From Catajapyx aquilonaris (Eukaryota): a stretch of DNA of 40,691 nt. This document shows, one piece after another, positions 3,740-38,012 of the stretch; position 1 is the stretch's first letter; each line of letters starts with the position of its first letter. The stretch covers positions 1 to 40,691 of the forward strand of contig KZ538914.1 in NCBI GenBank assembly GCA_000934665.2, given 5' to 3'. The translations under genes were made by a program, and so were the position numbers. The notes under the pieces were generated by a model. The model made no database searches. It saw only the letters and a program-made list of their open reading frames with translations, and was not told the origin of the DNA.

Positions 3740-4201
3740 TATATAGAACACTTGTACAGTTGTTTAAGTCTGTTAATTCTTAATTTGCTCATTTAAAATA
3801 TTTTTAAATCAGGCATATCTGAGTTAATAAACCCCAACACTAAGCAATTGCTTCACTTACTGTAATCGATAATGCAAATTACAAAACCTCACATTTCATG
3901 TACCTCTGCCAGTGCTTACAGTAAAAAATCGCCACCTCTAACCGTGAAAAAATAGCCTGCGGCTCCTGTTGAAATATTACCTGACATTAACGCGTAAAAA
4001 ATCCGGCAGCCCTTTTCATTTTTACTTCCTCCTGCTACTACCTGTCAACATGGTGTCGCCCGCTCTTCCGTTATATGAACCTACAGTAAATGACCACCAA
4101 GGGTATAGCCCCCACTTTGTATAGATCGCCATGCACCGGCTACTGAAACATTTATTCAAGAGACCTAACCCAATTTCTCCTCTCTTGATCCCTCCCTGCA
4201 G

Positions 4202-13238
<9,037 letters not shown>

Positions 13239-17420: not shown

Positions 17421-20400
17421 CTGCAATGAGGGAAAGTTAATGATTATTATACACTTATCTGTGCCACAACCTGGGACATTCGTGCAGTGAAAGCAAATGG
17501 AAGGTGAACCTGTGCATCCAAACACCAACACGAATAGCATGCAACATTGCTCTACAGCCTCTACATTCACTCTGCATTCAAAGTAATAGTGCGCTCACAC
17601 ACAAGTATATTTATACTGTAATGACTACCTCACGAACACCTTTTTGAAAGGGCTATGATGGTGCCTGGCTCATGGGGTCCAAAAGCTATCAAGGAACATC
17701 AATGGCCAAAAAAAACAGGGTGCAAGAGAGTGTGATAATGACAGAAAAGTGAAAGCTTGAGGTGAGACTGTATACTCAACATTGCGGATTTCTAATATTT
17801 TTTTCTCTAATTTAAGTGGTAACAGAGAGGAGGTGATTGGTAATACAATTTTAATTGTTCCATCACTGGCAGATGGCAACCAATTTTTAAAATTAGTTCT
17901 GACTATATATGACACTGAAAATGACTGTGTGCTGTCCCCTCAATTAGTGGCACCTTATCCAAATACACCATCACGTTTCAACCTAAAAAAAAATTCAAGT
18001 ATGTCGTCTTGAAAGCAGTGTTGCTAAAAGGAGTACAAAGGCAAAGAAACTACTGAAGATGCACATGACATGTACTATATCGCCCAAAAAGATAGAGACG
18101 ATTTTGCATTTGACTCAAGTGCAACTTGCACTTGAATCAAATGCCAATCGTCTCTATCTTTTTGAGCGATATAGTACATGAGTGCTTGGTCACAGCATGC
18201 AACTTTTAGTCTTGCAGTTATGAGCATCACTTAACCCAAGGTCTGCTCCACCACACTTTAACACTATTAAGAGCCTGGGTGGTTTTTCGCGTGTTTGCAA
18301 GGATCTGCAAAAAACTCACTTGCTTTGTCACTTGAGGAACGAACTTTTAAAGCCACCGTATCAGCATATGATACGCCCGTCTTATTAGGGTTAACAACGT
18401 GTTCTTCCGTTTATGACCAGTTGCACCACTCAAGGTAATTCTGGACTAAGAACGTCTTAGCTTGCTTATTTCTAAGTCTTTTGTGTTGCCAAACAAAAAC
18501 AGAAATAAACCCTCAGGGGTGCAAACCAGCCTGGATCAAAAGAACTGCCCAGTTAAACTTAAGATGCACAACCTTCAAGTGAGAATTCCATTAAAATGTG
18601 GCAACTATTCTCTAAAATGTGACAGGGATCATTTCAACATATTACCAGGGGGTGGGAAGTGAATCACTAGTCACTTAAGTTCTGCAGTCTGGTATTGCTG
18701 GTGTCTTCTAATCGTAATATTTATAAGGTAACTCTCTTTAGTCAAAATTTGAAGGCTTAGTGTAAATGTTCACCCAGGAATTTTTGGGGCACGGCACCAC
18801 ATCTAGTAGTAGTCATAGGGCACAATGCTCTGCGATAAAATTTCCCTGTATAGCATTTCGTAAGCGACTGCAAGGCAATATTATAGTTAACAGACGAGAA
18901 GCAGGTTTCGACTAGCAGGTTTCGACTAGCAAGGGGGCACGCTCAGACAGGCTTCAAAAAATTCTAATTTTCACTGTGCAATGCAGAGAGCAACCAATCC
19001 ATCAATCAATCCATCCATCAATCAATGTTAAACTGCTGCCAATGCACAATTCATGCATATGTTGTGCTTGTTATATGAGAATGTACTATGCTTACTGCAC
19101 CCCAGCTGCAGTACAGCAATATTTTAAAAGGTGCTACCATTCATTCCTGACTTAGGTTTTCATATGATCAAGAGCTTTTTAAAAGGTGGGGTAAATCTTA
19201 ACACTACGCATTCCCTCAAGTATTCCCCATACATGTCATCCATTCATTGTTGGGAAAAACTTGAAAATCATATCAAAGAACTAAAAAAAATGCAAATGCA
19301 GGTCTCTTCTGACAGGAAAAATATTCCAGCCAGCCAAACGTGTGCAATTTAAGTTCCTTGCACCGCTTGAATATCCCTTGGGTTAAAAGGCACACTGCCG
19401 ACTTGTGTGCTTCACAAGCAGGCACAAGTTGCTCAGATGACCAATACTAGTGCAGTGAATACAAGTGCAACTGGCCACTCAAAGTACAGCTGAATCAATA
19501 AAACATGTCTCATGAACACTTACCTCTTCATGTTATTTTGCCTGGGAGATGGAAAATATGGCCGTAAGGCAACATACATGGACAGAAAACAACACATAAA
19601 ATTGCACACAGGCAGTCTGGAGATTTTTCGCTCATTCTCTCTCATGAAGGGCATGGCATCCAACCAGATTCTCACGCATTTTTGCAAAAGTTTCGCCTTT
19701 GTTGCAAACATTTCACCAGGCATGCACTGTTTCCACATCCATAACATCACAAGCCTTGAATGCTAACCTTCTTGGACACAAAGATTTGGCTCCTCTTCAC
19801 TTTCCTGTCCTGCGGTAGGATCCTTGGTCTGTTGAACTCCCTGGGATGTTTCACTCGGTATATGCGCACAAGCCAGTGCTCTGATGTGTATGCTTCTTCC
19901 AGGTAAGTCAGCTGCACATCACGATTGCCAATCACAGCATTCCGAGTTCTGTCGTAGCCAGCTGGTGTGCGGAAGTCCAGCTGAAAAATTCACGTTTTCA
20001 ACCTCTCACAATAACTAGCCCAAGTTTATCAAGGGCTCTTATATTCCACTTCTGGAATCAGTGAATGGCATTCAAAATTGGTTGCATATTTCCATTTTAA
20101 AGGAAACTCAAAGCATGCATTTCTGAATTCAAGTGCAAAAGGCACACATCTTCTGTTGGGAGCACAAAAACCACCAGGAGTGACTCATGATTTACATCTC
20201 TTTGAGAATAAGATATTCACACCCACCTTGAGATCACCAAAGCGATAGTAACTCAGCTTGTACATGAGACAATTTAGAAGCACTGGAGATCCTTCTGAAT
20301 CAACCCGAAACTCGCCTCGTTCAGTGAAGTAATCACTCTCCTGCAAAAAGAAAATGTCAGTAACATATAACTTCATTTCAACACCATTTCTACTGACCCG

Positions 20401-28500: not shown

Positions 28501-31269
28501 CATGTTTACATAAACGATCACTGGGAGCAATGTGACCTTGGCATATACGACTCAACTTGGTGGGAACAGGGGGGAATCTGGGGTTGCTATGGTAGGTGAG
28601 TCATCATCCAAGAGATGGCAGAAGCATATTGAACCGCGTTTGGAACCGCAAAGTTTGCCTTCTCTATTCACATCCTAGGGCGCCAAATTCAAAAACCCTT
28701 AGGACATCAAAATAATTATGATGTACTTAGCCGTCAAAGGGTTACTTTAGTGGGGGCTTAACGTCTGCCTATTTCTGCCGCTAGGCTCAACACCGACGCC
28801 AGGGGGTGGTCCTCCTCCTGGAAATTTTGCCACTCTGGGGATCTTTAACGTGCACTCACGTAATGTCACAAGTACACGGGACCGACGGCTTTACTTCCCC
28901 TCCGAAGGAAGGCGCGCACTCACTTTTCTTCCACGCGGAGAAAAGTCACCGACCTCGGCCGAGTTCGAACCCACATCTTTGGGACCACAGGCAAGCGTGC
29001 TAACCACTAGTCCACCGGGCCCGGGCCGTCAAAGGGTTACTATCAGGAGGGAGGGGAGGAGGGAGGGGAGTATGATGCGGATATTGTTGGATGAACATCA
29101 TTAACAACATGGCCAACACCGCAGGCCCCAGGCTCAGAAAAAAGCGAGAGAAGCGAGTGGTTTTCTTGGCCTGCGCCCCAGAAAAATGTGAGCGAAGCGA
29201 GGGTTTTTCTAGTCACATTTAAAAATCTTTTATGCATAAATATATGGTGCTCATACTATTCTGGTAAGTTACCACATGAAATAAATGTCAAATAAGTTGC
29301 CGATAAAATTTGTCCTCAACACCAGCTTATTGGTGCTACCCACTTTCTCTGAGATTGTTATTTGTTGACCTTATGGCAGGATTCATGGCCAACAGAAGCT
29401 CCCCTTTAACATGAGCCCCCCTTAAAGGTAGAACCTTGACTTTTGTGAACCTTTGTTTTCACAGGCAGAAAAAATTACAAGCAAAAGATATCCCCTAATA
29501 AATTACCAAAGATGCTTTTGCTAGGTATCCTAAGCCAGTTACAACATATTTTGTCTTACTGATGCTTCAGTGCATATGAACCTGTTTTATAAAAGTTATG
29601 TCTTGCTCATCTGCATTCATAACAATGAAAAGCTCCTAGGTACTTGAATCACATTGGTAAAAATGTACACAAATGCAACAAAAATACCAAATACTGTCTG
29701 CAGTTTCCCCCAAAAACAAAAATGGAAAAGCCATGAGTACTACGTGTCACCTTACAATATTTGCTTGCTCTACTAAAAACTGCAACAGAATAAAAACCAT
29801 TTGAGGCCAAATGATCCCACCGAGATTTGAACTCGGACCACTCGACTCAAGAGTCCAGTGTGCTAACCGTTACACCATGGAATCGCACTGGCCTCTCTGG
29901 ATATTACGTATCATGCATTAAAGAACACACTTACTTGCTTGGATTCAGAATCTAAATATTAAAATATTGAAGTAAAACAGTACCTAAAGATCGGGGCCAA
30001 GAACACACAGATGTCTCTAATGTGGACGGGAATGTTGAGAAGTGAGAGCACGTAGTGAATGCTTCCTGAAGTGATCATGAGGCCAGGGTACACTGTGCCA
30101 CCAACAATGCGACCCAGAGGGTACCAGGCCCTCTCGTCAAACCAGTTCAGGAAGTTGTAGAAGCCATGTTGTACCATGTACGCAGTGGAACGGAAGTTGA
30201 ACCTGTTGAAGAATAACACCATGTTAACACCCAAAAATACAAAGATAACACTTGATCAACTTGCCCTTCAACGTCTTAAAACAGTTCTGTAACATTTTGG
30301 GGCAGGGGCACACATGTGACATGCACATCCCTGTCTAGGGGCCATCCATATACAACACCTGATTTTCATCATTCTTAAAGGGGCACTCCTTCAACAAATG
30401 GGCACCATAAATCAGGCAATGATTGGATTTTAATTGTGAAAGCACTTTCTCACAACTTAAAGGTAACCCCAGGGCGCAAGGTCAAAGTTGGCTGGAACGC
30501 TATCATCTATTGGCTAATGACGTGGCAGTACTGAAAGCGAGATCTGAAGAGTCACAGTCAGCTTCACCTCACAACCCTTGACCCTGGGAGAGAATCAGTG
30601 AGTCAACTGCCTCTGCACCTTTGCTGAAGTGTTACTGATTTATCCCCTTGCCTGATGAACAACATGATGCATTGCTCCTGACCTTGACCTCTCTTTCTCT
30701 CATCCTGGGGTTACCCTCTGCTTTGATAAAAACCAATCACACTCCCAGAATTCAGATTTATTGCTTTATTTTTAGTGCCAACTCCCCCACATAAGATAAT
30801 CACAAACAGCTCCAGTCCCCCCCACCCTCTCAAAAATTATGTCATGCTAACTATGGAAATCCCCTTTTTTGTTTTTCATCTCATAAATTTAGGAAATTTA
30901 GGAAAATTTTTGATTGATGTACTGAACATATGTGACAAACAGAAGAGGAGGGCAGGGTGTCATTCTTTGAACACACCCATGGCACGCGATAAATAACAAT
31001 TTATAAGGGCGACACGGTGGCGGAGTGGTTAGCGCTGCAGCCTTCCACCTCTAAGGTCCCGAGTTCGATCCCCGGGTTGGACGGAGGATACTTATGTGGA
31101 TAGAGTTTCAAAGGGTGCTCTCCGTATTCACGTGGGTTTTCTCGGGGTTCTCCCGTTTCCTCCCGCAATTTAAATCCATCACAGCACAGGCAATGATTAA
31201 AGACGGTTATTCAAAAGATGATCCCCTAAGAGGCCTAACACAGGGTATCCATTATTCTTATTCTTATTC

Positions 31270-31316
<47 letters not shown>

Positions 31317-32723
31317 GAATAACAATTTATAAATGTTCAATAAATTTGCCACTAATTGTTCAGGACTCATATGCTTGTCATGGAGGAAAATATTCACTAC
31401 CGCGAGTGATGTCAACATGACACGTGGTGAGTGCTTGCAGTTGGTCGGCAGGTGTGGAACTAGCCTGCCTGTCAGCCAGCTGGATTCAGAACACACGACC
31501 CTCTTGATGTCAGGAGAGTTATGCTCGCGTGCCAGAGGCCTGGAGAGCAAAATTCTCAAGCTGGCCTTGGTTCGAACTAGTCTAAACACCAGTTTTCCAT
31601 GGCTACATGATGAAACATGCTCCATGCTCTCTAGCAACTACAAGCTAATATACCACACTGTCTGGAAAACAGCAGCCATTGAAGAGACCTAAATTCATGG
31701 CCGCCACCCCCCCCCCCCCCNAACAGACATGTGTCAATGTTCTAGGCGAAATATTTGCAGACACAAGCATAGGGTCTTGTTAACTTTTATTTTGGCATTC
31801 CAGCATGACTTCACAATCAAGCATCCACATCATCATGCTGGCATCAACTGTCCCCTAAGAGGCATTTATAGATGCCCAAGTTGACTTCCACCTTTGAATG
31901 GTGATCAAGCATACATGTGTCTACTTGTAGAGTTAAAGTACAGCTACTTTCAGGAGTTCACATTATTATCATTAGCTGCTAACAGGACATCTTGAAGCAC
32001 TGTCTAGCTTGCCAACGAATTGGTGTAACTATTGACGGTAAGGGGCAATATATGAAATTTTTTTGTCACTTTTTGTACAAAATGTCTCTCTGCAATGATT
32101 AACATGCAGCCTCCTGCAACTTATATTTTTATAACTTTAAAGTAACTGTTTACTACTTAGCAGCTTAGTAGTGATTATCACTAATACTTCAGTTGGAAAA
32201 GGCAATCATCAGAATCGTAAACACGGGTATGTCAGTACCACCATTTCCATCTCAATACGAATTCCATGAAGCCTATGATATGTGTGACTCAACCAGCGCC
32301 GGATTTAAGGCAAGGCAACCTAGGCAGTTGCCTAGGGCAGCAGATTTCAAGGGGCGGCAAATTTAGGCATACAAAAAAAAAAGTGAGTGAAAAATTAATA
32401 ATAAATAATTAAGCAAGTGGAAGCAGCGCCGGACTTACTATTGGGCAGAGCAGGGAATTGCCTAGGGGTGGCCGCAAGTTGCAATAAATATTTTTCAAAT
32501 AGCTACTACAATAATAATAGGAAATAAATGCGAAAATTTTTTAACATTCAAAGATTTCGGCGGGGGGTTCCCAGCGCCGGATTTACCACTAGGCTTATAC
32601 GGGGGCGGCCATAAGTTGAAATAGTTGAAATATAAATTTTTATCTAATATAAAATGAAATGACGGAGAGAACTCGACCAAAAAATATTGAGTTTTTAAGC
32701 AGCATTGCGGGGATTGGGGGGGG

Positions 32724-34600: not shown

Positions 34601-35042
34601 TTGTTATATTAGAGGCTGGGGGTATTGATCCGGGTGGGCCTAAATAGTGGGATGGGCGCCTCACGGTTTAGAGCAAGGAACGGACCGGATGGCGCTTGGT
34701 CAAGTAGCGCCTCTGTGTTCTGTGGGCGCCGGGACTTTTGGAATGTCTATTGTGCGGTTTGGAGTTGTTGGTTGTTATTGTGGGACGAACGTTGCATCGG
34801 GGCTGATTGTGCATCGGGATTGTGTAGGTGGGCATGTAGGTGAGTTAATGGTGGTTAGGGATAGCAGGTGGAATTTGCGGAAGGGGTACTGACAGTGAGT
34901 GATAAGTCAGATTGTGTTGTGTGTACCGTATACCGGGTGTACCTCATCCGGCTCTGCGTCTGACACTATATGACACCAGACTATATACCTTAAGGGGGGG
35001 GACACGGGGGCACGTGCCCCCCCCCCCCGAGGAAAAAAAACG

Positions 35043-35171
35043 NNNNNNNNNNNNNNNNNNNNNNNNNNNNNNNNNNNNNNNNNNNNNNNNNNNNNNNNNN
35101 NNNNNNNNNNNNNNNNNNNNNNNNNNNNNNNNNNNNNNNNNNNNNNNNNNNNNNNNNNNNNNNNNNNNNNN
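35043..35171. other. Assembly gap (129 N) inside a G/C-run hAT-like MITE (right end ...GGGTCCGCCCCTG at 35214)
   Basis: N run flanked by GGGGGCACGTGCCCCC and AAAAAATTTCTGGGTCCGCCCCTG. Confidence 0.85.
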
Positions 35172-35336
35172 CCCCCCCCCCCCCCGCCAGAAAAAATTTC
35201 TGGGTCCGCCCCTGGGTAGGCCTACTTTTTCCGTTTGCTGATACCCACTATGCATATTTTCTGGAACAGGTATACCCTTTAGTGTTACTCCATGGAAATG
35301 CAGTCATTGTTGACACTGTTTACTGCATGAAAATGT

Positions 35337-35518
35337 GAAAGGTGGGATTGTTGACTATAACAAAAGGGCAGGCAGGCCTGCCCTTTTGTTATAGTCAACA
35401 ATCCCACCTTTCGAAGGTACTTTTCCGTTCGCTGATACCAACTACGCATATTTTCTGGAACAGGCCTGTTCCAGAAAATATGCGTAGTTGGTATCAGCGA
35501 ACGGAAAAGTACCTTCGA
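35337..35518. repeat. Two abutting perfect palindromes (37-bp arms with a 2-nt spacer; 54-bp arms with no spacer)
   Basis: 35337-35412 and 35411-35518, checked base by base; a diverged third arm lies at 35224-35270. Confidence 0.95.
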
Positions 35519-36684: not shown

Positions 36685-37056
36685 CGGAGTGGCGCTGCGG
36701 TAACGTGTGCGCCCACAGATGTTAAGGTCCCGGGTTCAATCCCAGCCCGGGGTTACCCCCTTCATATCGTGCAGAGTTCGGGGTCATCTCTGGCTTCGTC
36801 TCGGGTGGTATCTCCGTTAAGACAAAACCACATGGGGGGGAGGTCACAAAATGACCACAGTAACGACACTGCACTGCACCTTGCACATCCCCTCCTGTCA
36901 ACCTGCCCGTGGGCCGGGCGTTTCAAAAACTGTGGTTCCAATGGACTATGTATCCTACAACAACGGTACAATAAAGGTCCGTGCGAGAAACACCAATAGG
37001 GGTAAAGCACTACCCAAGGATGATGATGATTATTGTTGTTGTTGGTTGTTGTTGTT

Positions 37057-37090
<34 letters not shown>

Positions 37091-37114
37091 TATTATATAT
37101 AATTATATATAATA

Positions 37115-37167
<53 letters not shown>
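36685..37167 (+). mobile_element. SINE family A, near full length, with a compound microsatellite tail
   Basis: TGGCGCTGCGG / GGTTCAATCCC boxes, family A body, then (GAT)n(GTT)n(AAT)n(TAT)n; the tail resumes at 38013. Confidence 0.8.
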
Positions 37168-37168
<1 letters not shown>

Positions 37169-38012
37169 TAGCAGGTTACCCGGCGTTGCCCAGGTATGTT
37201 GGGGTGCCGGTACAGATTATCTGTGATAGATTACCTGTTTGTCTTATAGCGTACAGTCGACACGGATATTCTGATTGGATGTGTAAAAGGAGGAATGCGG
37301 ATGGAGTTGGCCCAGGAAAAGACTGCACAGCCATGTGTTTTTCCCCCTGCATTTTTGACCCCTTGACCCCCCCTCCCTCCCCCAACCCCACTTCACACCC
37401 CCACCTCGTTCCATATGTTTGCTCTGGATAACTTTACAAATGTACGTACAGATGTATGATGGGAAATTTTGTTTTCAACACGGAGTAATATAAAGTTGTG
37501 CTGCGGGAACGTCGGGTTCGATCCCAGCCCGGGGTTCCCTCCTTCATCCCGTGCAGAGTTGGGTCGTCTCTGGCTTCGTTTCGGGTGGAATCTCCTCAGA
37601 CTAATTCACCCGGGGGAGTTCACAAAATATACCGTTTGAGAATTGCTCCCACCTTGCACATCCCCTCCCAGTCACCCTGCCCGTGGGCTCGGGCGCTACG
37701 TCAAAAAGGTTCTATCAAGACAAAATAAAGGTTCTCTCCCGGCGGTACGATGCAGGGAGGTAAATAGCTAAAAAAAGAGAGGCATTTCCATGGGAATGCA
37801 AATTGATTTATTGCTATTGATGTAAGCTAATTGTTGAGGCAGGAATATGCGTGTTGTGGGAGTTAGGTACATTTTCGGAAGCTGAAACATGCGGCGTTAG
37901 ATTCCTTGGAAGAAGTAACCCCCGATATGCTAATTTAAGGCGGTGTAGGGGCCTTCCCCTGGATTTCTATAAGGGACAAACATCCAAACTTCCTTATTTA
38001 TAGATATAGAGA
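37168..38012 (-). mobile_element. Non-autonomous Helitron inserted in the SINE tail
   Basis: Minus strand A|TCTCTATATCTATAAATAAGG 5' end; 3' hairpin CCTGG-GCAACG-CCGGG, 7 nt, CTAG|T; (TTA)n on both flanks, no TSD. Confidence 0.8.
37480..37760 (+). mobile_element. SINE family A copy inside the Helitron
   Basis: GGGTTCGATCCCAGCCCGGGG...TCTCTGGCTTCGTTTCGGGTGG...TTGCACATCCCCTCC...AATAAAGGT. Confidence 0.75.

Follow-up and report, generated by a model that had tools for sequence, protein, structure and literature searches.

The yeast suppressor SUF16 is a +1 frameshift suppressor tRNA with an anticodon loop of 8 nt. Another suppressor, sufG, is described as a natural derivative of tRNA-Gln that acts on CAAA, and an E. 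coli tRNA-Gln into which one base had been inserted, so that it carries a CUUG anticodon, reads the quadruplet CAAG (PMC9094753). A natural 8-nt anticodon loop that is active in decoding has also been reported for yeast mitochondrial tRNA-Thr1 (PMC3113583, PMC4267643). A case of another kind is mascRNA, a mammalian RNA with a cloverleaf that lacks a conserved anticodon loop and binds glutaminyl-tRNA synthetase (GlnRS) while remaining uncharged (PMC9976931), and tRNA pseudogenes are described as common in large eukaryotic genomes (PMC8450103, PMC2888827).

The locus considered here lies in the window, the whole stretch of 40,691 nt of Catajapyx aquilonaris DNA (contig KZ538914.1) that was analysed. 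With the +1 suppressors (sufD, sufG, SUF16 and the engineered E. coli tRNA-Gln) it shares the one extra base of the anticodon loop, and with the last of these the very same CUUG anticodon (PMC9094753). The suppressors, in contrast, are otherwise intact working tRNAs that were discovered through their activity, whereas the body of the present gene is not intact. Mitochondrial tRNA-Thr1, which likewise has a natural loop of 8 nt, has features of its own, in that it is a mitochondrial molecule, conserved among budding yeasts, that reads the triplets CUN and is served by a dedicated synthetase (PMC3113583, PMC4267643).

The whole tRNA-like gene is 73 nt long and occupies positions 29812–29884 of the window's minus strand, with its 5′ end at 29884 and its 3′ end at 29812. 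The tRNA model of Rfam (RF00005) matches it far above chance, with 50.3 bits (E 5.3e-08) as compared with a gathering score of 29, which places it in the family; a tRNA-Gln model that we built from 28 distinct tRNA-Gln genes (R1) gives 75.6 bits (E 2.3e-20), and ARAGORN calls it 'tRNA-??? anticodon (cttg)'. The minus strand is also the sense strand of the host gene, whose exon 2 (29984–30205, minus strand; the 3′ end taken from the sequence, the 5′ end approximate) matches positions 36–105 of the Pfam STT3 profile with 75 bits. The neighbouring exons correspond to profile positions 2–35 (upstream, at about 34.2 kb) and 106–192 (downstream, at about 22.0–22.3 kb). Since exon 2 ends at 29984 and the intron opens with GT at 29983, the tRNA-like gene begins 99 nt inside the intron. 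An earlier, sequence-only reading had placed a 73-nt tRNA-Gln-like gene on the STT3 sense strand, 99 nt into intron 2 and followed by five T; ARAGORN and Rfam agree with its coordinates, and the Pfam exon limits bear out the rest for the exons visible in the window. Pfam identifies the host gene as STT3 only, and we presume that it is STT3B rather than STT3A. Over 29300–30400, contigs of a further organism (organism C, run X8) align only at 30063–30206, in a part of the STT3 exon, with 17–26 differences, and neither run X5 (a second sample of organism A) nor run X6 (organism B) gave any alignment, such gaps in cover carrying no evidential weight.

Runs of T terminate transcription by Pol III. 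A plausible terminator of this kind, TTTTT at 29792–29796 (minus strand), follows the 3′ end of the gene after a trailer of 15 nt. A scan for bacterial-type promoters and terminators, signals that are irrelevant to Pol III, returned 0 sites. Two candidate features of the surroundings were tried and rejected. As a target-site duplication, a 10-nt repeat (9/10 alike, 29758–29767 and 29932–29941) is uninformative, since our own estimate puts the number of such pairs arising by chance in 221 nt at about 0.7, and 11 nt of the leader (29886–29896) are 91% complementary to 29850–29860 at the anticodon arm, which is likewise within chance.

The gene can be drawn as a cloverleaf with four paired arms, in which 20 of the 21 pairs are standard. 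The acceptor stem is formed by G1–C72, A2–U71, U3–A70, U4–G69, C5–G68, C6–G67 and A7–U66 and is followed by the discriminator A; its A2:U71 pair represents a compensatory change. The T arm (nt 49–65; 29820–29836, minus strand) is the same as that of canonical eukaryotic tRNA-Gln and, judged by the B-box consensus, contains that region of the Pol III promoter. Positions 8–25 (29860–29877, minus strand), presumably the A-box region by its consensus, comprise U8, G9 and a D arm GUGU/GCAC with the loop AACGGUUA, and deviate from the consensus of the comparison genes introduced below solely at position 16, where the C of this gene is found in 9 of 83. The D and T arms, that is, the internal promoter regions, are intact, as is the downstream T5 run. 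The sole non-standard pair lies in the anticodon arm (nt 27–44; 29841–29858, minus strand), whose stem CUGGA/UCGAG contains a G29–G41 mismatch, flagged as a non-standard pair by cmscan and cmsearch and already noticed in the sequence-only reading. The anticodon loop, CU-CUUG-AG (29846–29853, minus strand, the four middle letters at 29848–29851), has 8 nt where a tRNA has 7, ARAGORN reporting a four-letter anticodon and cmscan one inserted base, just as that reading had held.

A 20-nt word that includes the T arm was used to fetch 123 metagenome loci in which it occurs exactly. Among the 111 tRNAs carrying the word that ARAGORN found there, 91 are tRNA-Gln, every one with the anticodon ctg (65) or ttg (26), and none of the 111 has a four-letter anticodon. 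From these loci a comparison set of 83 clean 72-nt eukaryotic tRNA-Gln genes was obtained, all of them belonging to unknown eukaryotes in metagenomes rather than to the host organism and all selected for the exact T-arm word. G2, C71 and A38 are present in 83/83 of these genes, A46 and U73 in 82/83 and C41 in 78/83, while in the tRNA-like gene positions 2, 71, 38, 46, 73 and 41 read A, U, G, G, A and G, respectively. The A–T pair at 2:71, to which attention had been drawn on the strength of the sequence alone, is therefore a departure from a G2:C71 pair found throughout the set, and the last letter of the anticodon loop is G as compared with A in 83/83. Neither the CUG or UUG anticodon in a 7-nt CU-NNN-AA loop nor the G2:C71, A38, A46 and U73 of a working tRNA-Gln is found. 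The nearest of the 83 genes is 9 differences and one inserted base away, the median distance of the set to its own consensus being 2. Relative to the eukaryotic tRNA-Gln consensus the gene carries about ten substitutions in addition to the inserted base; five changes fall at fixed or nearly fixed positions, and four of the ten (positions 4, 16, 26 and 44) are ordinary variants found in 9–20 of the 83 genes.

The model scores tell a similar story. The 75.6 bits obtained with R1 lie outside the range of canonical tRNA-Gln genes (93.8–104.3 bits); L011 and L110, two copies with visible damage, reach 83.8 and 78.6 bits, and a bacterial tRNA-Glu with the same T arm reaches 75.0 bits. With the Rfam tRNA model the gene has 50.3 bits; of 18 loci tested with it, the canonical tRNA-Gln genes range over 62.6–70, and L011 and L110 have 49.0 and 46.3. 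The scores of the tRNA-like gene thus fall with those of damaged copies, outside the canonical range. Descent from tRNA-Gln is established. For tRNAscan-SE, an overall score below 55 bits, where the primary or the secondary score is low as well, is given as one criterion of a pseudogene (PMC8450103, PMC2888827), and the 50.3 bits must be read in the knowledge that they come from Rfam's model, which is different from tRNAscan-SE's own.

The anticodon arm deserves separate consideration. Fold prediction, which leaves aside base modifications and proteins, gives P(C32:G39) 0.99 and P(U33:A38) 0.85 within the loop, and the zipped form, at −23.4 kcal/mol versus −19.1 for the open one, is favoured by 4.3. 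The centroid fold has 4 pairs, the G–G mismatch, 4 further pairs and a CUUG tetraloop, two of its outer pairs reaching past the anticodon arm so that the D stem is sacrificed. The zipping-up onto a CUUG tetraloop that the sequence-only reading had proposed is, accordingly, real in silico. In 28 canonical tRNA-Gln genes the same prediction gives P(32:38) = 0, and closure is lost when the last loop base is changed back to A in silico. As the G at the end of the loop pairs with C32, the anticodon loop is predicted to close.

Taken together, these data argue that the locus is probably a decayed single-copy paralogue of cytosolic tRNA-Gln in the second intron of an STT3B-type gene, hence either a tRNA pseudogene or, at the very most, a tRNA-like gene that does not decode. 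Transcription by Pol III may persist, and the RNA would take on a tRNA-like fold; glutaminyl-tRNA synthetase would presumably charge it poorly, and, being unable to present an anticodon, it would take no part in decoding. The gene resembles tRNA pseudogenes of the tRNAscan-SE type in its recognizable cloverleaf and isotype origin, in a score well under that of working genes, in the lesions of its anticodon loop and stem, in being a lone dispersed copy with unrelated flanks and in the presence of other damaged copies in the same genome. Indeed, no second copy of the gene or its flanks exists within the window, and two further single-copy contigs of run X1 (depths 33.2 and 25.4) resemble the tRNA in its 3′ part alone, over 33 and 35 nt, the sequence on either side being unlike. 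At the loose ends of these two contigs, one has a 7-nt anticodon loop with an AAC centre and the other a loop of about 10 nt; such differing lesions point to several tRNA-Gln-like loci in the genome, each damaged in its own way. The idea that one of the run X1 contigs (record 2) shares A73 and U71 with the present gene was dropped, since its 2 differences are explained equally well by the ending ...ACCU of a canonical gene with a T after it; record 3, with 4 differences, is likewise compatible with a canonical 3′ half. Canonical tRNA-Gln genes of organism A were absent from the aligned contigs, from which any resembling human DNA are removed, so that this absence carries no weight. An exact scan for the 28-nt 3′ word of the variant yielded 0 occurrences in a prokaryote genome collection and 0 in a viral one, neither of which includes animals.

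Some features speak against simple decay. Better preserved than many tRNA pseudogenes, the gene has kept 20 of its 21 pairs, a T5 run resembling a terminator and intact promoter regions, and this near-intact cloverleaf, with its compensatory 2:71 change and untouched T arm, makes a transcribed and possibly functional RNA conceivable. Random substitution of the consensus nevertheless leaves at most one broken pair with P 0.074 for 10 substitutions and 0.29 for 6, and leaves the T arm untouched under ten substitutions with P 0.053, which is low but not significant; the test thus detects no significant selection on structure. The sequence-only reading had also entertained a young pseudogene. The pseudogene is what fits best, whereas its youth is doubtful, given the at least 9 differences and one inserted base that separate the gene from every one of the 83 comparison genes. 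The interpretation offered in that reading is, overall, partly supported.

Alternatively, the gene might specify a non-decoding mimic, a tRNA-shaped RNA made by Pol III or by processing of the intron, with the anticodon arm as a closed hairpin. By analogy with mammalian mascRNA, such an RNA could bind tRNA-handling proteins such as GlnRS, or it could give rise to small RNA fragments. We regard this as unlikely. The retained cloverleaf, the intact promoter regions and T5 run and the predicted closure of the arm onto a CUUG tetraloop, a loop termed thermodynamically stable in the title of PMC10401711, are what such a mimic would offer, and the uncharged interaction of mascRNA with GlnRS makes a role conceivable for a tRNA-Gln-shaped molecule that, like mascRNA, has a cloverleaf without a usable anticodon loop. 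Unlike the present stand-alone tRNA-type gene, mascRNA is cut from the Pol II lncRNA MALAT1 and is conserved, and the Rfam mascRNA-menRNA model finds nothing at 29812–29884 up to E 1. Moreover, structure is kept no better than random change permits, and the differing loops of the other tRNA-Gln-like loci of run X1 are as decay predicts. A second tRNA-like gene of the window (4674–4747) speaks for the mimic, being likewise intronic and sense and having an anticodon arm of 8 pairs that closes on a tetraloop (z −3.46), but it scores just 36.9 bits with R1, and the two genes are unrelated in sequence and have no shared flanks; this second gene is the only one matched by the mascRNA-menRNA model (25.3 bits, under the gathering score of 42.5). 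Neither headline proposal of the sequence-only reading, the quadruplet decoder or the mimic, is supported by anything that we tested.

As a separate observation, the anticodon arm is closed in both tRNA-like genes of the window, which are unrelated to each other and lie within 25 kb, each in an intron and in the sense orientation.

It is improbable that the gene is the head of a tRNA-derived SINE or another repeat. Animals are described as commonly having tRNA-derived SINEs (PMC8450103), and two weak R1 matches of about 12 bits each, at 28950–29021 (minus strand) and 36699–36758 (plus strand), resemble SINE heads. The flanks of the gene are, on the contrary, unique inside the window, the only other matching run X1 contigs match within the tRNA alone, and the T5 run comes directly after the gene, with no common body or tail. 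The many copies sharing a body and a tail that define a SINE were found neither in the window nor among the run X1 contigs.

The 8-nt loop could instead belong to a functional +1 frameshift suppressor that reads CAAG, as the sequence-only reading had suggested. It would be a nuclear, Pol III-transcribed quadruplet decoder, charged with Gln or another amino acid, whose CUUG would cause +1 shifts at some sites and whose A2:U71 and A73 would hand it to a different or relaxed charging system. This we hold to be highly improbable, both for the suppressor as such and for the charging scheme just outlined. By their place in the sequence, U33 and the purine 3′ of the four-letter anticodon do stand where a quadruplet decoder requires them, U33, CUUG and A being all in register, the cloverleaf and promoter regions are kept, and decoding of CAAG by the engineered E. 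coli tRNA-Gln (PMC9094753) indicates that the mechanism could in principle operate in a tRNA that is otherwise intact, unlike the one at hand. Against it, G2:C71, U73, A38 and A46 are all altered, the anticodon stem has a G–G mismatch, the pairing of C32 with G is predicted to shut the loop, the scores are within the range of damaged copies and 0 of the 111 tRNAs with the same T arm have a four-letter anticodon. The elements of Gln identity, as documented in E. coli and not in animals, are the anticodon, the acceptor stem and the discriminator (PMC9976931). Since CAA followed by G is very common, a general suppressor would also be costly, and the expectation voiced in PMC9094753 is that quadruplet tRNAs occur in nature less often than other variants of the code.

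Least credible of all is that the extra base is an artefact of assembly or sequencing, absent from the DNA of the organism: the window is a draft with 132 N, but no support for an artefact was found, the base stands within a run of just two T rather than a long homopolymer, and a separately built 1846-nt contig of run X1 (depth 27.7) has 0 differing letters and 0 gaps across 29300–30400, which excludes an assembly or consensus slip at the level of assembled contigs, the contig not counting as an independent individual insofar as run X1 may be the sample behind the window's assembly.

Because the sequence of the locus is unique, any tRNA-seq reads from it could be traced unambiguously. If expressed and charged, it would be the first natural nuclear tRNA-Gln of the quadruplet type. 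If the ordinary reading as a decayed tRNA-Gln copy is right, it is one more degenerate copy of a tRNA gene, of little consequence and useful chiefly as a warning that an anticodon loop of 8 nt, when met in a draft animal genome, is by itself no sign of four-base decoding.

The gene analysed here, a tRNA-like sequence of 73 nt, lies on the minus strand of the window at 29812–29884. ARAGORN assigned it no tRNA type and returned a four-letter anticodon, cttg, while the Rfam tRNA model, whose gathering score is 29, matched it with 50.3 bits (E 5.3e-08); in that alignment the anticodon loop carries a single inserted base, and one pair of the anticodon stem is non-standard. The acceptor stem is fully paired, A2–U71 and a U4–G69 wobble included, and both the D arm and the T arm are regular. 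In the anticodon stem, CUGGA/UCGAG, G29 faces G41, and the stem encloses the loop CU-CUUG-AG. The discriminator base is A, and a T5 run (29796–29792, minus strand) follows 15 nt downstream. All the elements that the sequence-only reading had described for a tRNA-Gln-like gene with an 8-nt CUUG loop were therefore recovered by ARAGORN, Rfam and inspection. Its 'sense strand' is correct with respect to the host gene, the sole correction being that this is the minus strand of the window. Pfam places the STT3 profile on that strand, with positions 2–35 in an ORF near 34.2 kb, 36–105 in the ORF at 29962–30255 and 106–192 near 22.0–22.3 kb. Since the exon upstream of the tRNA-like gene ends at 29984, the latter begins 99 nt past the 5′ end of the second intron visible in the window. 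Of the two paralogues, we take the host to be probably STT3B rather than STT3A. The 11 nt directly upstream of the gene (29886–29896) are 91% complementary to 29850–29860, the 5′ strand of the anticodon stem and the start of the loop, which is within chance at that length.

Sequence comparison clearly points to descent from tRNA-Gln. When a metagenome collection was scanned for a 20-nt word taken from the T arm of the gene, at least 123 loci were retrieved, and among the matches listed ARAGORN called 142 tRNAs, 111 of which contain the word. Tallied over these matches, 91 of the 111 are tRNA-Gln (65 ctg, 26 ttg), the remainder being Pro, Lys, Glu and single others; none has a four-letter anticodon, and in 16 loci the word falls outside any called tRNA. 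Eighty-nine occurrences among the matches listed could be cut out whole and with the tRNA-Gln loop motif. The comparison set comprises the 83 with a length of 72 nt and at least six of seven acceptor pairs, six others (70, 71, 73, 73, 73 and 77 nt) being left out. These 83 genes were all chosen by the exact T-arm word and come from eukaryotes in metagenomes, not from this organism. The consensus they give is the well-known tRNA-Gln of eukaryotes, and the gene, one loop U removed, agrees with it in 62 of 72 columns.

The 10 differing columns fall into two groups, all frequencies referring to the 83 genes among the matches listed. Four are ordinary variants (U at position 4, 19/83; C at 16, 9/83; A at 26, 20/83; U at 44, 20/83), and six strike fixed or nearly fixed positions: G2 and C71 (both 83/83) are replaced by A and U, A38 (83/83) by G, C41 (78/83, the other five U) by G, which creates the G–G mismatch, A46 (82/83) by G and the discriminator U73 (82/83) by A. 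In E. coli, Gln identity resides in the anticodon, acceptor stem and discriminator (PMC9976931). Within the same set, the closest gene differs from ours at nine positions, the median distance of a member to the consensus being two. The scores agree with this drift. With the Rfam tRNA model, canonical tRNA-Gln genes in 18 tested loci of the 123 (among the matches listed) reach 62.6–70 bits, and two visibly damaged copies, L011 and L110, reach 49.0 and 46.3, the gene standing at 50.3. With R1, a covariance model that we built from 28 distinct tRNA-Gln sequences with all seven acceptor pairs (among the matches listed), canonical genes in 32 of these 123 loci score 93.8–104.3 bits, the damaged copies 83.8 and 78.6, and the gene 75.6, which is no better than a bacterial tRNA-Glu sharing the T arm by chance (75.0).

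Another retrieved metagenome contig, L076, carries tandem tRNA-Gln genes about 290 nt apart (matches 254–325, 543–614 and 830–900). In the third member the body is that of tRNA-Gln, but the anticodon is CTA and the D arm is shortened; ARAGORN labels it tRNA-Pyl, and it scores 67.3 bits with Rfam and 89.4 bits with R1. Eukaryotes in which UAG is read as Gln would be expected to have a glutamine-type amber suppressor of this kind.

Folding predictions, which treat the RNA as naked and ignore base modifications, indicate that the anticodon loop is closed. The centroid fold contains the acceptor arm, the T arm and a lengthened anticodon arm that ends in a CUUG tetraloop; when folding is constrained to the cloverleaf, the zipped form is predicted at −23.4 kcal/mol against −19.1 for the open loop. 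The pairs C32:G39 and U33:A38 have predicted probabilities of 0.99 and 0.85, whereas that of 32:38 is 0 in 28 canonical tRNA-Gln genes (among the matches listed). Working tRNAs generally avoid Watson–Crick pairing at 32:38. Restoring A in silico at the last loop position abolished closure, and removing the extra U left the loop closed; the substitution would thus be what closes the loop, the inserted base being a second, separate lesion. The title of PMC10401711 terms the CUUG tetraloop thermodynamically stable.

A non-decoding tRNA mimic, as the sequence-only reading had proposed, is possible, with a small chance. There is a precedent in mascRNA, which has the cloverleaf but no conserved anticodon loop and which binds GlnRS and is not charged (PMC9976931). 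Compensation at 2:71 and the preservation of the arms hint at selection, yet lie inside the range of chance. Random substitutions were placed on the consensus with two transitions per transversion: with ten of them, at most one pair was broken with P 0.074 and the T arm stayed untouched with P 0.053; with six, the values were 0.29 and 0.19.

That the gene is the head of a SINE is largely excluded. Two further contigs come from X1, a public sequencing run. Within the 3′ part of the gene (window 29807–29849), one of 3437 nt (depth 33.2) matches over no more than 33 nt and one of 7345 nt (depth 25.4) over no more than 35 nt, and both pass into unlike sequence on either side. Their loose ends (30 letters each) hold tRNA-Gln D-arm and anticodon-stem sequence with different loop letters, one loop having 7 nt with central AAC, the other about 10 nt. 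They differ from the gene at two and four positions, as expected of a canonical tRNA-Gln 3′ half, so that sharing of derived positions cannot be claimed. No canonical copy appeared among the contigs, a set from which those resembling human DNA, as canonical tRNA-Gln does, are removed. The two contigs show that single-copy tRNA-Gln-like loci recur in the genome, that the anticodon-loop lesion differs from one locus to the next, and that likeness ends at the tRNA borders, a pattern that fits scattered decaying gene copies and not a SINE.

A true quadruplet decoder, also proposed from sequence alone, is very unlikely. By analogy it might be entertained, since an E. coli tRNA-Gln given one extra anticodon base to read CAAG 'functionally decodes a quadruplet codon', and a CAAA suppressor, sufG, derives from tRNA-Gln; the authors of the same paper, however, anticipate that quadruplet tRNAs are rare in nature (PMC9094753). 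A literature search not designed to prove absence turned up no description of a nuclear tRNA-Gln that naturally has a loop of 8 nt. Finally, an extra base absent from the organism's DNA is largely excluded. The public runs matching the window comprise four of one sample of 'organism A', a possible source of the assembly, and a few weaker ones. Four runs were compared with positions 29300–30400, and one X1 contig of 1846 nt (depth 27.7) spans the whole interval without a differing letter or gap, so the base is present in the reads and no assembly slip, X1 not being an independent individual.

The window holds a second odd tRNA-like gene (4674–4747, plus strand), with 52.9 bits on the Rfam tRNA model, 'anticodon (cgat)' in ARAGORN, and 36.9 bits on R1, hence not tRNA-Gln-like. 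It is predicted to fold into a perfect cloverleaf, the anticodon arm forming a hairpin of 8 pairs closed by a loop of 4 nt (MFE −32 kcal/mol, z −3.46, 0/200 shuffles as good), and a T5 run lies about 45 nt downstream. Flanked by a kinase-like exon (4189–4371) and a cyclase exon (5397–5873) of a plus-strand receptor guanylate cyclase gene, it is intronic and sense, like the 29812–29884 gene. Two weak R1 matches (about 12 bits, E about 0.2, G+C 0.62 each), at 28950–29021 (minus strand, within the STT3 intron that holds the 29812–29884 gene and about 800 nt downstream of it) and 36699–36758 (plus strand), look like heads of tRNA-derived SINEs. Hairpins at 35334–35415 and 35429–35500 (each on both strands) and at 18083–18166 (minus strand) match microRNA models below gathering scores (mir-2985, 40.5 and 39.5 bits; mir-581, 41.2 per strand), and the near equality between strands suggests palindromic, MITE-like repeats rather than microRNA genes. 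With 132 N (runs at about 34970–35170, single positions near 6880, 7450 and 31720) and long microsatellites at 10740–10860, 31240–31320 and 36990–37170, the window bears the marks of a draft from an animal genome rich in repeats.

In animal genomes, tRNAscan-SE, for which a score below 55 bits is one pseudogene criterion, finds tRNA-like pseudogenes in large numbers (PMC8450103), and their count climbs steeply with genome size (PMC2888827). The pseudogene proposed by the sequence-only reading is the alternative that we retain: the 29812–29884 gene is most likely a decayed tRNA-Gln paralogue. As both the promoter regions and the terminator seem intact, transcription may persist, but the product is unlikely to be charged with Gln or to present an anticodon.
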